Below, one piece after another: positions 10,059 to 28,180 of a stretch of DNA of 39,189 nt. Location: the NCBI GenBank assembly GCA_043756885.1, contig JAYUQF010000161.1, positions 1 to 39,189 of the forward strand. The letters are read 5' to 3'. A model generated the notes under the pieces. It saw only the letters and a list, made by a program, of their open reading frames with translations, did not search any database and had not been told where the DNA came from. Every line of letters starts with the position of its first letter. Within the stretch, counting starts at the first letter, position 1. This DNA is from Pseudomonadota bacterium (GTDB lineage Bacteria; Pseudomonadota; Gammaproteobacteria; Ga0077536). Made by a program: the position numbers and the translations under genes.

Positions 10059-10817
10059 CTAATAGACGCGCAGAACCGCGCCGTGATCTTGATCCTCGAT
10101 GTAATCCTCGTAGCCGTCGCCGGGCGGGTTGCCGTCGTAGATGTCGTATTCGCGCTGCTGGCGCCAGGCTTCACGGACGAAGGTGTAGGGGTCCAGTGCC
10201 GCCTGATCTCGAATGCGCGAGGCGTCGAGTAGATTGGCGCGGGCATTAACCACGCTGACAACGCCGGCAGGAATCGTCACCACTGAGGCGAAATAGGTCA
10301 GGGGATTAAGCAATAAACTCATCACTGGCGAGGTCACATCTCGCGCTGAACTTGGTCCCATCAGCGGCAGCATGAGGTACGTGCCTTCTTTGGCGCCCCA
10401 TTTGCCAAAAGTCTGGCCGAGGTCTTCACTGTTTTGTTTTAACCCCATGCTCGTCGCCGGGTCGAACAAGCCACCGATGCCGATAGTGCTGTTAACCAGG
10501 AATCGCCCGGAATCGTGCGCTGTCTGTCCAAACTTGCCCTGCAGCAAATCGTTCGCAATGGTATTCAGATAACCGGTATTGTCGAAGAAGTTCGTAATGC
10601 CGCTGCGAACCGGACTCGGCGTGTACTGCGCGTATTTTTTTGCCACTGGCTCAAAAAAACTTTTGTCCAGCGTGTCATTGAATGAATAGACCTTGCGGTT
10701 CACATTCTCGTAGGGATCGCCATTGTTTTTGGCGATGTCGGTTGACGCGCATCCGGCGAGAGTAAGCAGGACTAGGGTCGCAGGAATCAGGCGCGACAGT
10801 GCACTGAACTCAGTCAT
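10059..10817 (-). CDS. mlaA: VacJ/MlaA-family outer-membrane lipoprotein
   Basis: Lipobox LAGC; motifs DPYENVNR..FND, RFLVNSTIGIGGLFDPA, EDLGQT and YLMLPLMGPS. Start placed at ATG 10817. Confidence 0.88.
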   Translation of the reverse strand: MTEFSALSRLIPATLVLLTLAGCASTDIAKNNGDPYENVNRKVYSFNDTLDKSFFEPVAKKYAQYTPSPVRSGITNFFDNTGYLNTIANDLLQGKFGQTAHDSGRFLVNSTIGIGGLFDPATSMGLKQNSEDLGQTFGKWGAKEGTYLMLPLMGPSSARDVTSPVMSLLLNPLTYFASVVTIPAGVVSVVNARANLLDASRIRDQAALDPYTFVREAWRQQREYDIYDGNPPGDGYEDYIEDQDHGAVLRVY

Positions 10818-10902
10818 GTTGGAAGTTCCACAGGCTTGGAAAAATCGTGGTGGATATTGCCACACTCGTTGTTAATCCGCACTAAGGCCGGCACCTGACC
10901 GC

Positions 10903-11505
10903 CTACGAACCCTTACCCATTTCAGCGGTCTTTTTTTCCAGGCGGTTAATCAGGGAATCAAAGCCTTCGCTCTTGATAACGGCCGTGTAGTCGGCGCGCT
11001 TGAGCGACAGGTCTGAAACACCCTGGGCGACCACGTTCATAATGCGCCAGCCATCGTGGCCCTGGCGCAACAGGTAATTGAGGGTCACGGGCTCGCCCTT
11101 GGCCGGACGCAGGGTAGTACGCACGATAAGCGCTTCGTGATCAGCTTCGCTACCCTCAGTCTGAAATTTTTCGCCGGAAAAGCTCGAAAAATTACTGGCA
11201 TAAGTCGCTACGCTGAGCGTCTTAAAGGCACTCGTGAAGCGCGATTTCTGTTCATCACTAGCGCTTTTCCAGTAGCGGCCGGTGACAATGCGGCAAATCG
11301 ATCCAAAATCAAAACTGCTCTCTATCACCGGCGCCAGCAATTCTTCTCGACCCTTCAAGCCGAGCTGGGCGCCGCCACGCATGGCCGTGAGCAGCGACTC
11401 GTGCAGTTTTTCAACGACGGCTTTGGCCTCGCTGTCATCAACTGCCGCAGCGAGGCAGGAGAACAGCATCAGCGTTGTGACTACGGCTAGTTTCAGTGCT
11501 TGCAT
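10903..11505 (-). CDS. hpnM: Hopanoid-associated MlaC/Ttg2D-family periplasmic protein HpnM
   Basis: Signal peptide, SFDF..I..I.TGRYW and WRIMNVVAQGVSDLSLKRADY; hopanoid gene context. Start placed at ATG 11505. Confidence 0.8.
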   Translation of the reverse strand: MQALKLAVVTTLMLFSCLAAAVDDSEAKAVVEKLHESLLTAMRGGAQLGLKGREELLAPVIESSFDFGSICRIVTGRYWKSASDEQKSRFTSAFKTLSVATYASNFSSFSGEKFQTEGSEADHEALIVRTTLRPAKGEPVTLNYLLRQGHDGWRIMNVVAQGVSDLSLKRADYTAVIKSEGFDSLINRLEKKTAEMGKGS

Positions 11506-11640
11506 TACTAGTTTTATCCTGGTGAGTCGCAGGGCGCGCGCTGGAGCGGGGCGATGCGACAGGGCGTGTCGTTTGTTAAGTTTGAGCAACTGCGGCATCG
11601 ATGTTCGATAATCCGCATCGACAGCTGCGTGCCAGCCATT

Positions 11641-26335: not shown

Positions 26336-26384
26336 CGCTAGTTCCCATGTTCGAAAGATTTATATGTTGTCAGTCACCGACCGA

Positions 26385-27062
26385 TCACTTGCACAGCAGT
26401 GCGCCCGCGCCCCGCAGGGCGCGCAGCGCGGCACCGTACCACAGCGCCAACCGCAGCAGAGCAGCGAGTTCCAGCGGCTGGCGTAGCAGCGCCGCAAGCG
26501 TCGCCAGTGGGCGACTGCTGCCATCGTCTGCCATCCCGACCAGCGCGCAAGAAGGCAAGGTAAAACCCGCTGGATCGGCAATACAGCGCAGCACTGCGAA
26601 GGGCAGCGCATGGGCGTGCGCAACGCGGCCGATCGCGGCCGACTCCATATCGACGGCGCCGACCTGCAAGGCGTTGCACAGTGCGCGTTTGTCGGCTTGG
26701 GCGTGCACCGGGGTGTGGGCTGCATAGATATCGCAGTGATACGGGTGGCGCGAGCGCAGTCGCGCCATAAGTTCGGTGCGCAGCTGGGCATCACAGGTCA
26801 GCAGCTCACCATCGGCACCGTGTACGGTGTGGGCGACGACAAGCGTGCCGGGGCGCAGTGCAGGATCAAGCCCGCCACACACACCAAAGCTCAGTAACGC
26901 GTCGCAGCCATCGTCGAGCAATGCGCGCGCTGCCACAGACGCGCGTTGTGGGCCCGGACCTGACACTTGGATCTGATAGCGGCCATGCGCTAAAAATCTG
27001 CCCTGACGCGCCGGCAATGTGCCTGCTTCTGAGGCGAGCGCGATAACGATGCCGACCCGCAT
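26385..27062 (-). CDS. hpnG: Hopanoid-associated nucleosidase/phosphorylase
   Basis: Motifs SGPG, LLSFGVCGGLDPAL.PG, VDMESAA and VLRCIADP; hopanoid gene context. Confidence 0.85.
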   Translation of the reverse strand: MRVGIVIALASEAGTLPARQGRFLAHGRYQIQVSGPGPQRASVAARALLDDGCDALLSFGVCGGLDPALRPGTLVVAHTVHGADGELLTCDAQLRTELMARLRSRHPYHCDIYAAHTPVHAQADKRALCNALQVGAVDMESAAIGRVAHAHALPFAVLRCIADPAGFTLPSCALVGMADDGSSRPLATLAALLRQPLELAALLRLALWYGAALRALRGAGALLCK

Positions 27063-27094
27063 GGATGCCCTGTAGTGGCCCAGCAGCGCTGCAA

Positions 27095-28180
27095 TCAGCG
27101 CGCTGCCGGGCTGCCGGCAATCGCAGCGACGCTGGCCAGCGGGGTCGCGATAAGGCGTTGCGGTAGACCGGCAGAAGCAAGTTTAAACAAGCCAGTGAGC
27201 AAGCAGTCGGACGACACCACCAAGTTTGTTGCAAGCACGGTTGTTTTGACCGCCTTACGTGAAATTTTTACCTGCTGACCATCGGCAAAATCACGCTTAG
27301 CATCAAGTTTGCGTAAGGTCAGCACTGCCATGCCGAGCGCCCATAAGCAGAAACGTCGAATGCCGGGTTCGCTGGCGGGGATAATCAAAGCGTAACGCAG
27401 GGCGTTGCGCAGATGGCCATGGGCGATGGCTAACAGCTGCCCTAGAGCGTCCGTAAAGGCTTGCCCGCCCTGGCCGGGCGCAACATCGCTCAGCACCACC
27501 CCCTGGGCGGCAAATAGATCGCGTGGCAGCCAACATGCACCGCGCGCACGATCATCCCAGATGTCTTTTAAGATATTGGTCATCTGCAGGCCTTCACCAA
27601 ACGAGACGGCGAGATGCATCATTTCGGTCTCACGGGCGGCTAGTTCCGGGCAGTGATCGCAGAACAGCGACGTCAGCATCTCGCCTACCACACCTGCGAC
27701 GTAGTAGCAGTAACGATCCAGGGCAGCCTGATCCTCAACCCCATCAAGGGTCTCCTGGCCCTGATAAAACACCATGCCTTGCGCCATGATACGTACGCAG
27801 CGCGCCATCGCGTGCTGCACGCGTGTATTGAAGCTGTGGGTGATGCGGGTCACCCGTGGTGTTTGAGCAATCAACTCGCGTTCGGCGGCGCTGGCGTGAG
27901 CAGCCAAGCGTGGGCTTAGTTCGCGAGCGAAACCCTCGGCAGCGCTTCGCCCTTCAACGATGGCCATGAACTCGGCGGCGTAGCGGCGCTTGTCCTCAAA
28001 AGAAAGACCGGCGTCATCTTCGATGGTATCGGCGATGCGACACAGCAGATAGGCATTGGAGACCGCGCGATCGAGGCCGGGCGGTAGTTGTGGAATGGTC
28101 AGCGCGAAAGTGCGTGAGACGCCCTGCAGAATGCGGCGCTGGAATGATTCGTCTTCAGTGGAGGGCAGGACGGCAGACAT
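27095..28180 (-). CDS. Squalene/phytoene synthase family protein, probably a one-enzyme squalene synthase
   Basis: VSRTFALTI flap, CRIADTIEDD, YCYYVAGVVGE, GLQMTNILKDIWDD and C-terminal VKISRKAVK. Confidence 0.85.
   Translation of the reverse strand: MSAVLPSTEDESFQRRILQGVSRTFALTIPQLPPGLDRAVSNAYLLCRIADTIEDDAGLSFEDKRRYAAEFMAIVEGRSAAEGFARELSPRLAAHASAAERELIAQTPRVTRITHSFNTRVQHAMARCVRIMAQGMVFYQGQETLDGVEDQAALDRYCYYVAGVVGEMLTSLFCDHCPELAARETEMMHLAVSFGEGLQMTNILKDIWDDRARGACWLPRDLFAAQGVVLSDVAPGQGGQAFTDALGQLLAIAHGHLRNALRYALIIPASEPGIRRFCLWALGMAVLTLRKLDAKRDFADGQQVKISRKAVKTTVLATNLVVSSDCLLTGLFKLASAGLPQRLIATPLASVAAIAGSPAAR

Follow-up and report, generated by a model that had tools for sequence, protein, structure and literature searches.

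Why should a complete set of genes for 2-aminoethylphosphonate (AEP) synthesis lie inside the hopanoid operons of a gammaproteobacterium? The question is raised by a 39-kb contig (JAYUQF010000161.1, 39,189 nucleotides; C161 in the numbering used here) of a Pseudomonadota draft genome, GCA_043756885.1, which comprises 658 contigs and is 80.5% complete. The whole of that contig is referred to below as the window. An earlier note on the window had suggested that positions 10059–28180 direct the synthesis of a bacteriohopanepolyol carrying a phosphonate head group. Comparative analysis indicates that the locus is an integrated variant of a known, uncharacterised cassette family, and a functional tie between this cassette and extended hopanoids is well supported, resting on operon fusion, deep synteny, and a nested distribution taken together with the membrane protein HpnL. 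The reading tentatively preferred here is that of a vertically inherited hybrid, in which a Group 1 phosphonolipid cassette was spliced into the extended-hopanoid synthesis and export operons of an uncultured gammaproteobacterial lineage and would give rise to a covalent AEP-hopanoid product.

The locus and its relatives link two problems. One is the product of the Group 1 cassette. Its seven-gene core, “Burkholderiales_CDP-OH”, was equated with the Group 1 phosphonolipids of Yu et al. 2013 by Li and Horsman (2022; PMC8942020), whose paper ranks it first in abundance among the pepM cluster families of sequence databases, predicts that it makes 1-hydroxy-AEP, and reads the family as a phospholipid locus; by the same account, no phosphonolipid had been characterised from it despite its prevalence, and no later characterisation of the product was found in the literature. 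The other problem is the role of hpnL and hpnA, which, together with hpnB, are treated as unexplained in a recent preprint (10.1101/2025.07.29.667474) and in PMC12583986. No word starting with “phosphon” occurs in either text, nor, in that of the preprint, one starting with “CDP”.

The proposal of the earlier note that no such lipid had been characterised held in the literature searched. The underlying idea is not wholly new, since the adjacency of phosphonate and terpene genes has already been mentioned in print, in single sentences. For example, squalene synthase and cyclases beside the AEP core of Nitrosococcus (GCF 731) were said to “hint at a possible phosphonoterpene” (PMC8942020), an antiSMASH “phosphonate-terpene” call was reported for the same genus (PMC7285500), and in the Acetobacteraceae, terpenoid genes were described as often linked to the mutase gene in “terpene-phosphonate” clusters (PMC8776678). 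A gene-level model, a conservation or co-occurrence analysis, or a product for this adjacency was not found in the literature searched.

A Phosphonate Cassette between Hopanoid Operons

Profile searches of the window’s open reading frames (ORFs), in which Pfam matches were judged by E-value and NCBIfam matches by bit score against curated cut-offs, located every gene named in the earlier note where that note had placed it, and delimited a block of fifteen genes and one insertion sequence set between housekeeping genes. HpnH, HpnA, HpnM, Dxs, the phosphoenolpyruvate (PEP) mutase, the phosphonopyruvate decarboxylase, and the AEP aminotransferase all score over their NCBIfam cut-offs; HpnB and HpnG fall slightly under theirs, and the hpnL-like gene and the squalene synthase-like gene (sqs), both solid members of their Pfam families, fall well under. 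Profile matches cover every function on which the proposal was built: enzymes for making AEP and for activating it with a cytidylyl group, a CDP-alcohol phosphotransferase, an HpnL resembling a flippase, and trafficking proteins of the Mla type. Beyond these, the analysis revealed a second PntC-like nucleotidyltransferase, a 2-oxoglutarate (2OG)/Fe(II) oxygenase, an ISAs1 insertion, and a squalene-hopene cyclase (SHC) gene on another contig.

At the centre of the block is a five-gene AEP operon on the minus strand, in which the oxygenase, nucleotidyltransferase, pepM, ppd, and aepZ genes follow one another with junctions of +8, −11, +12, and −4 bp. The first gene (20835–21584) encodes the 2OG/Fe(II) oxygenase, a predicted AEP hydroxylase with a modelled BesD/HalD fold (Pfam HalD and 2OG-FeII_Oxy_3), and the second (20086–20826) encodes the stand-alone PntC/IPCT-like nucleotidyltransferase (Pfam NTP_transf_3). 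The third (18441–20096) encodes a fusion of the PEP mutase with a PF12804 nucleotidyltransferase domain of the PntC type at its C-terminal end (TIGR02320, 393.4 bits against a cut-off of 319.6). It is followed by the gene for phosphonopyruvate decarboxylase (17271–18428; TIGR03297, 441.8 bits against 312.5), and this overlaps by 4 bp the adjacent gene for a 2-aminoethylphosphonate aminotransferase of the AepZ/PhnW type (16201–17274; TIGR03301, 377.9 bits against 360.8).

Hopanoid genes stand on both sides of this operon. To its left, dxs, for isoprenoid precursor supply (14301–16196, plus strand; TIGR00204, 910.7 bits against 466), is convergent with the operon, and four bases separate its end from that of the transaminase gene. 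Beyond it, a minus-strand series, hpnH-hpnB-hpnM-mlaA, encodes the radical-SAM adenosylhopane synthase HpnH (12820–13950; TIGR03470, 538.8 bits against 225), an HpnB-like family-2 glycosyltransferase (11641–12756; TIGR03469, 367.7 bits against 379.25; Pfam GT2/GT21), the MlaC-like periplasmic lipid-binding protein HpnM (10903–11598; TIGR03481, 216.8 bits against 160.1), and, starting 37 bp after hpnM, an MlaA-family outer-membrane lipoprotein (10059–10865; Pfam MlaA, E = 2.1e-71) that is syntenic in relatives and belongs to the family named “HpnS” in the preprint cited above.

To the right of the operon, a divergent plus-strand gene (23688–24719) encodes a membrane protein with an LPG_synthase_TM/flippase-like domain (Pfam PF03706, E = 5e-35), called HpnL-like because its TIGR03476 score of 159.4 bits lies under the cut-off of 195.65. 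The next four genes are on the minus strand: hpnA, for a short-chain dehydrogenase/reductase labelled “hopanoid-associated sugar epimerase” (24729–25721; TIGR03466, 487.7 bits against 367.65); the gene for a class I CDP-alcohol phosphotransferase of 205 residues, the predicted phosphono-head-group transferase (25718–26335; Pfam PF01066, E = 1.7e-12); an hpnG-like nucleoside phosphorylase/hydrolase gene (26385–27062; TIGR03468, 182.7 bits against 187.1); and sqs, for a squalene/phytoene synthase family protein (27095–28180; Pfam SQS_PSY, E = 2.5e-57; TIGR01559, only 108 bits against 287). Read in their own direction, from sqs through hpnG and the transferase gene to hpnA, they are separated by gaps of 32 and 49 bp and then joined by a 4-bp overlap. 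A recent horizontal island was ruled out as the origin of the block, since GC content stays at 0.55–0.62 without a composition break over 10–28 kb and the insertion sequence is the only mobile element.

Further hopanoid genes of the same genome lie outside the window. The SHC gene is on contig C531 (TIGR01507, 525.9 bits), where it is cut by the contig end; an hpnN gene (867 bits) is on contig C235, beside an undecaprenyl-diphosphatase gene; and an HpnI-like gene is on another contig. An HpnJ over the cut-off was not found in four searched genomes of the window’s genus, and a relative, G012, carries two hpnN copies, one of them near hpnI-hpnJ. Two additional HpnL-like paralogues of the window genome (G000) were found in locus L140 of contig C274 (5581–7784) and locus L141 of contig C483 (5709–8378). 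One paralogue overlaps the HpnI-like glycosyltransferase gene by 4 bp and has a DegT/PseC-type aminotransferase gene divergent from it, and the other has an acyl-CoA ligase gene next after it, a pattern suggesting that particular lipid head-group or lipid-modifying enzymes each have an HpnL paralogue at their side.

Judged by sequence, the AEP genes make up, with those for the transferase and HpnL, the Burkholderiales_CDP-OH, or Group 1, cassette. In cyanobacteria, this takes the form of a compact unit (transferase-oxygenase-nucleotidyltransferase-pepM-ppd-aepZ) among unrelated genes. In genomes of the order Burkholderiales, the same unit has a bona fide HpnL embedded in it (374.6 bits against the cut-off of 195.65), away from hpn genes, which bears out a caveat of the earlier note that comparable operons with HpnL-like genes occur in Burkholderia. 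The hpnB gene is not part of the cassette in either group.

Conservation of the Arrangement

All 24 genomes of the window’s family carry the full-length PepM–nucleotidyltransferase fusion, at 60–93% identity, as do two genomes from other families. When the window’s proteins were mapped onto 20 stretches from 18 fusion-bearing genomes, AEP genes were found beside hopanoid genes in every genome, with hopanoid genes on both sides in 15 and with one side cut by a contig end in the other three. The gene order that is kept runs sqs-hpnG-(gap)-transferase-hpnA-hpnL-oxygenase-nucleotidyltransferase-pepM-ppd-aepZ-dxs-hpnH-hpnB-hpnM-mlaA, and it is maintained even where hpnG or hpnM is just 27–50% identical. 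The transferase gene is inside the block in 16 of the 18 genomes and missing from it in G021 and G038.

Many relatives have hpnN in the gap that separates hpnG from the transferase gene. For example, in the hpnG-hpnN-transferase-hpnA series of locus L016 (hpnN at 12170–14824, 945.5 bits), hpnG and hpnN share 13 bp, hpnN and the transferase gene lie 1 bp apart, and the transferase gene and hpnA share 4 bp. In the window’s genus, hpnN has been relocated out of this position.

The survey was widened with 80 loci fetched from public genomes by similarity to the PepM fusion, comprising 44 proteobacterial, 34 cyanobacterial, one Streptomyces, and one Planctomycetota locus. At least one hopanoid gene is present in 32 of the 44 proteobacterial loci, and seven of the twelve misses are contigs under 11 kb; hpnN is present in 20 of the 44. 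Conservation of the pepM–hpn adjacency had been named beforehand, in the earlier note, as one of the points on which its proposal could fall, and the adjacency is kept in the 18 relatives and in these 32 proteobacterial loci. Among the cyanobacterial loci, six of the 34 have hpnA within 10 kb and five of those six also have hpnH, in other orders and orientations. Cultured strains among the carriers include Chlorogloeopsis fritschii PCC 6912, Nostoc sp. UHCC 0252, and Calothrix sp. UHCC 0171. Neither the Streptomyces nor the Planctomycetota locus contains a hopanoid gene.

The block has also been remodelled in places. In a sub-lineage comprising L107, L112, L108, L092, and L117, the transferase, oxygenase, hpnL, and hpnA genes are not beside the AEP genes, and the genes that replace them upstream of the nucleotidyltransferase gene include pgi (L107) and Ser/Thr kinases with a cyclic-nucleotide-binding domain (L107 and L117); in L092, L108, and L112, the replacing ORFs were matched by size and order alone. 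The dxs and hpnH genes still follow the AEP genes in L107, L112, and L117, and the L092 and L108 stretches hold no hopanoid gene.

Taken together, the arrangement is far beyond chance. A purely accidental adjacency, neutral and without functional meaning, could draw on the cassette’s mobility across phyla, evident in a FastTree phylogeny of 101 fusion proteins in which the cyanobacterial sequences form one clade nested among gammaproteobacterial ones, and on its ability to function away from hpn genes. Such an accident nonetheless has to contend with synteny in 18 of 18 relatives at deep divergence, with overlapping reading frames, with a phyletic distribution nested in SHC- and HpnH-positive genomes, and with the reappearance of hopanoid genes next to the cassette, differently arranged, in cyanobacteria. 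It is extremely improbable and was rejected on conservation.

Phyletic Distribution

The distribution of the cassette adds support that the earlier note had not drawn on, namely a strict co-occurrence with the cyclase and HpnH, and the membership of HpnL as a hopanoid-restricted component. A window-type PepM fusion was defined as one at least 60% identical to that of the window. SHC was found over its cut-off in all 24 genomes with such a fusion (20 of 20 chosen genomes and 4 of 4 in a phylum sample), as compared with a background of 49 of 400 genomes in the phylum sample; the chosen genomes came from public loci without hopanoid genes nearby, except for two with hpnA nearby. HpnH was found in 23 of the 24. 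The same nesting is seen on a finer scale. In family f30, the cassette occurs in three of seven genomes, and the same three have SHC; in a second Burkholderiales-order family, f131, the cassette and SHC are likewise both present (SHC in two of two).

The transferase orthologue was found in five of 301 genomes of a Burkholderiales-order sample, three in f30 and two in f131. All three in f30 have the cassette, and of the two in f131, one has the full cassette and the other has the hpnL-transferase-aepZ end of it on a 3.4-kb contig. No orthologue was detected in 44 other SHC-positive genomes, and the possibility that the transferase is a general hopanoid gene was ruled out on this count; the transferase searches elsewhere included positive controls. 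It was also missing from four of four SHC-negative genomes with a stand-alone PepM and, apart from the seed genome G045, from all 150 genomes of a cyanobacterial phylum sample. In four genomes whose PepM fusion is only ~50% identical to that of the window, neither SHC (at E 1e-100), nor HpnH, nor the transferase orthologue (sought alongside a positive control) was found. The transferase travels with the AEP genes, not with hopanoid genes in general.

HpnL behaves differently. It was detected (TIGR03476, E 1e-30) in 34 of the 400 genomes, and 33 of these are SHC-positive, the exception being a 73%-complete draft; an unpublished genome, G440, is counted among both the 49 cyclase-positive and the 34 HpnL-positive genomes. 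The cassette is present in four of the 34 and missing from the other 30, by which HpnL was ruled out as a phosphonate-specific gene. With 33 of 34 HpnL genomes SHC-positive and only four carrying the cassette, HpnL is thus linked to hopanoids independently of the phosphonate genes, even though it is also a component of a phosphonate cassette.

Predicted Enzymology of the Cassette

The PEP mutase carries the EDKXXXXXNS signature, read directly as ten letters of its protein sequence, and matches the solved PEP mutase PDB 1M1B at E = 8.9e-128. The NTP_transf_3 region occupies residues 307–424 of the fusion ORF, and its relatives among solved structures are LicC (1JYK, E = 4.3e-9) and 6PD1 (E = 4e-7). 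For the stand-alone nucleotidyltransferase, the best solved relative is 6PD1, a Treponema denticola nucleotidyltransferase/aminotransferase, over the full length (E = 1.2e-9), followed by the IPCT structures 2XME and 4MND and then by LicC. The two nucleotidyltransferases are mutually 33% identical over ~125 residues.

A PDB sequence search found no solved relative of the oxygenase. Its structural model (pLDDT 90) has HalD, HalB, and a “hydroxylase homolog of BesD” as top Foldseek folds (E = 1e-12 to 1e-11), and its iron site, H136-x-D138...H196, is invariant in 62 of 62 sequences. Enzymes of the BesD/HalD family act on free amino acids, and within the family an H-x-D iron site marks a hydroxylase and H-x-G/A a halogenase. 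The halogenase reading suggested by the Pfam “HalD” match was therefore ruled out by the invariant H-x-D triad, and the combination of a BesD/HalD-like fold with an invariant H-x-D...H site suggests a hydroxylase acting on a small amine, for instance AEP.

The transferase has the features of a class I CDP-alcohol phosphotransferase, with a complete motif (D64xxDGxxARx8GxxxDxxxD89, present in 62 of 63 orthologues) and a modelled membrane fold of about six helices. Its only PDB sequence match is the membrane half of IPCT-DIPPS (4MND, E = 2.1e-6), and the folds nearest its model (pLDDT 88) are those of AF2299, DIPPS, and PIPS, at TMq values of 0.59–0.71, with PgsA1 also among the closest. The nucleotidyltransferase and transferase, taken as a pair, look like a split IPCT-DIPPS, a likeness that would favour a soluble CMP-phosphonate donor.

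From these assignments, it is very probable that AEP or hydroxy-AEP is activated with CMP by the cassette and passed on to a membrane alcohol. The 2-AEP itself would, from the family membership of the enzymes, be made by PEP mutase, phosphonopyruvate decarboxylase, and the transaminase; the BesD-like oxygenase would hydroxylate AEP or CMP-AEP; and the PepM-fused and stand-alone PntC-like nucleotidyltransferases, by their likeness to solved PntC, LicC, and IPCT, would make CMP-(hydroxy)AEP. The DIPPS-like transferase would then move the phosphono head group to a membrane lipid alcohol.

The nature of that alcohol could conceivably be something other than a hopanoid or a glycerolipid, such as lipid A or the lipopolysaccharide (LPS) core, a glycan, an ornithine- or sphingo-type lipid, or a hopanoid glycosylated by HpnB. 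AEP is known on a polysaccharide of B. fragilis and on a ceramide of Bacteriovorax stolpii (cited in PMC8942020), an HpnB-like glycosyltransferase and the HpnA “sugar epimerase” are both present in the block, and the nearest relatives of the transferase accept soluble polyol phosphates. Such an acceptor is nevertheless improbable: glycan-directed AEP systems are described as using LicD-type transferases (PMC6697681), of which the Pfam and NCBIfam scan found none in the block; hpnB lies outside the cassette of cyanobacteria and Burkholderiales; and no LPS or sphingolipid gene is conserved beside the cassette in the 18 relatives and the public loci.

The Acceptor: Hopanoid or Glycerolipid

From genome context, the acceptor would be a C35 bacteriohopanepolyol produced by SHC, HpnH, and HpnG, with the head group attached at its terminal polyol; the terminal triol of such a lipid may be considered chemically glycerol-like. 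In the inner membrane, the product would be handled by the HpnL-family protein, and its transport to the outer membrane would fall to HpnN, HpnM, and the MlaA-like protein. Of the readings considered, attachment to the hopanoid polyol alone explains, without an extra assumption, both the membership of HpnL in the cassette and the strict dependence on HpnH-bearing genomes. A covalent link between phosphonate and hopanoid polyol, suggested by genome context, is a nearly balanced possibility. More tentative still is its specific and general form, in which a bacteriohopanepolyol is esterified terminally to (hydroxy)AEP, HpnL and perhaps HpnA take part in head-group attachment or handling, and the same lipid is also made by cultured Burkholderiales, Nostocales, and Nitrosococcus.

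The main rival, doubtful though a serious possibility, is a different product, a glycerophosphonolipid, with which most of the data agree no less well and for which hopanoids would serve as a co-regulated and co-exported partner in the outer membrane to which the phosphonate is not joined. Here, a CMP-AEP donor might be used with diacylglycerol, or a PIPS-like CDP-diacylglycerol donor with the hydroxyl of 1-hydroxy-AEP. The published view of the Group 1 family as a phospholipid locus (PMC8942020) suits this alternative, as does the presence of CDP-diacylglycerol-using enzymes, PIPS and PgsA1, among the closest solved folds. It likewise draws strength from the separation of the cassette from other hopanoid-pathway genes in most cyanobacterial and in the Burkholderiales-order loci, from the lack of a recorded phosphorus-bearing hopanoid, and from the pairing of oxygenase and transferase. 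In some gammaproteobacteria, the transferase and oxygenase genes lie far from AEP and hpn genes. In the complete genome G053 (L131, C1:1567000–1586999), for example, the transferase-oxygenase pair (9074–10429) is ~1.3 Mb from the nucleotidyltransferase-pepM-ppd-aepZ genes, which are themselves ~20 kb from sqs-shc-hpnG. The pairing of oxygenase and transferase thus outlasts the splitting of the cassette, which would fit a hydroxyl made as the acceptor.

The scattering in G053 and its like is one of several observations that weigh against a covalent phosphono-hopanoid. The cassette stands apart from other hopanoid genes in much of its range: 28 of the 34 cyanobacterial loci, and the Burkholderiales-order loci L114–L116 and L138, have no hopanoid-pathway gene other than hpnL within 10 kb. 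One draft, G057, has the fusion without an HpnH match. The genomes counted are kin, representing roughly five to six lineages, and the counts overstate their independence. The Streptomyces (L039) and Planctomycetota (L094, a metagenome-assembled genome) fusions, the former 72–74% identical to that of the window, fall inside gammaproteobacterial clades of the tree, so horizontal transfer, mis-binning, or contamination is likely and these two carry little independent weight; the transferase orthologue was not found in the Streptomyces genome. The folds nearest the transferase model (PIPS, DIPPS, and AF2299) are uninformative about a hopanoid site, and sequence and fold alike are compatible with a hopanoid or a diacylglycerol acceptor.

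Lipid chemistry adds to these reservations. No phosphorus-bearing hopanoid or bacteriohopanepolyol is on record in the literature searched. The known lipid acceptors of this transferase family are glycerolipids or ceramide, and triterpenoids are not known to be among them. Moreover, the hopanoids of some carriers, such as Burkholderia and Nostoc, have already been studied, although the usual derivatising methods would probably miss a phosphono-hopanoid. Finally, a phosphonolipid and hopanoids that did no more than cooperate in the outer membrane would leave just the same co-occurrence and shared operons.

What the glycerophosphonolipid alternative leaves unexplained is nonetheless considerable. 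Unless the partnership is obligatory, it does not account for the confinement of the cassette to SHC- and HpnH-bearing genomes, nor does it account for the hopanoid-restricted HpnL as a core cassette gene or for the translational coupling of the transferase gene between hpnN or hpnG and hpnA. Its PIPS-like variant leaves no role for either PntC-like nucleotidyltransferase. No glycerophosphonolipid has been reported from carriers of the cassette, by the account in PMC8942020 and in the later literature searched. The comparative data narrow the acceptor question to whether the cassette needs hopanoids for its lipid.

Either outcome would be intriguing. A phosphono-hopanoid would represent a new lipid class, the first hopanoid with phosphorus and the first triterpenoid lipid with a carbon–phosphorus bond, and it would provide sediments, mats, and soils with a newly recognised sink for reduced phosphorus, might serve as a very stable biomarker, and would give orphan hpn genes a function; it could have escaped notice in standard hopanoid work-ups, in which the side chain is derivatised or cleaved. 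A glycerophosphonolipid found only alongside hopanoids would still be a notable case of obligate lipid partnership in bacterial outer membranes.

Neighbouring Genes and the Insertion Sequence

The block is bordered on its left by mutS, htpG, prmB, aroC, and glcEF and on its right by nnrU and a CoA-transferase gene. The stretch, or large parts of it, appears to be present in sediment, lake-water, and microbial-mat metagenomes of several studies, and four sequencing runs were examined.

Between the oxygenase gene and hpnL lies a 1.9-kb insertion sequence of the ISAs1 family (21675–23600; NF033564, 138.6 bits), which, with its target duplication, spans 21664–23611. The duplication is an exact direct repeat of 11 bp, at 21664–21674 and 23601–23611. 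The transposase is split into two overlapping minus-strand ORFs (22415–23536 and 21702–22451), the N-terminal of which also has a Pfam DruA-like region (79.5 bits). In four relatives without the element, homology ends near 21653 and restarts near 23615. In contigs of three public runs, 21663 is joined directly to 23601, representing an empty-site allele in related populations; in the best-matching run, contigs break at the element ends. Contig depth of element fragments is above that of the flanks in all four runs. A weaker, partial copy of the element is found on contig C111 (82% over 250 bp).

Because relatives and three runs have the empty site and a target duplication flanks the element, it is a recent, polymorphic, and strain-specific insertion into the divergent promoter region, ~250 bp long, that separates the oxygenase gene from hpnL. 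It does not belong to the phosphonate/hopanoid system, although the AEP operon of this strain may be expressed differently because of it.

Comparison with Known Systems

The closest known counterpart of the locus is the Group 1 cassette, with which it shares the Ppm-PntC fusion, Ppd, the AEP transaminase, the 2OG oxygenase, the second PntC, the CDP-alcohol phosphotransferase, and the PF03706 membrane protein. The orthologues of Burkholderiales-order genomes are 49–64% identical to those of the window, and hpnL is 29% identical. Unlike those cassettes, that of the window has been opened and interleaved with hopanoid operons, such that the transferase gene lies within sqs-hpnG-(hpnN)-X-hpnA, and hpnA and a divergent hpnL stand between the transferase and oxygenase genes. 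The Nitrosococcus and Acetobacteraceae clusters, compared here by their published descriptions only, similarly link an AEP core to squalene synthase, cyclase, or terpenoid genes.

Two characterised enzyme systems bear on the activation and transfer steps. Tde-PntC (PDB 6PD1/6PD2; Rice et al. 2019, PMC6697681) is an AEP cytidylyltransferase that belongs to the same Pfam family, PF12804, whereas the window has two PntC-like paralogues with a predicted activity of this kind. In the IPCT-DIPPS protein of Archaeoglobus fulgidus (4MND), a cytidylyltransferase is likewise joined to a CDP-alcohol phosphotransferase, the donor being a soluble CDP-alcohol. In the window, by contrast, the two activities would be encoded by separate genes, with a phosphonate substrate and a lipid acceptor presumed, and identity in the structural alignment is ~25%.

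Finally, the HpnI/HpnJ/HpnK tailoring of bacteriohopanetetrol, with its glucosamine and cyclitol-ether heads, also involves dedicated enzymes that decorate a C35 polyol, and the overlap of HpnI-like and HpnL-like genes elsewhere in the window genome repeats what is seen at the cassette, where an HpnL paralogue likewise accompanies a predicted head-group enzyme. The difference lies in the chemistry, in that HpnI/HpnJ/HpnK act through glycosyl transfer and have known products, whereas phosphonyl transfer is predicted for the window.

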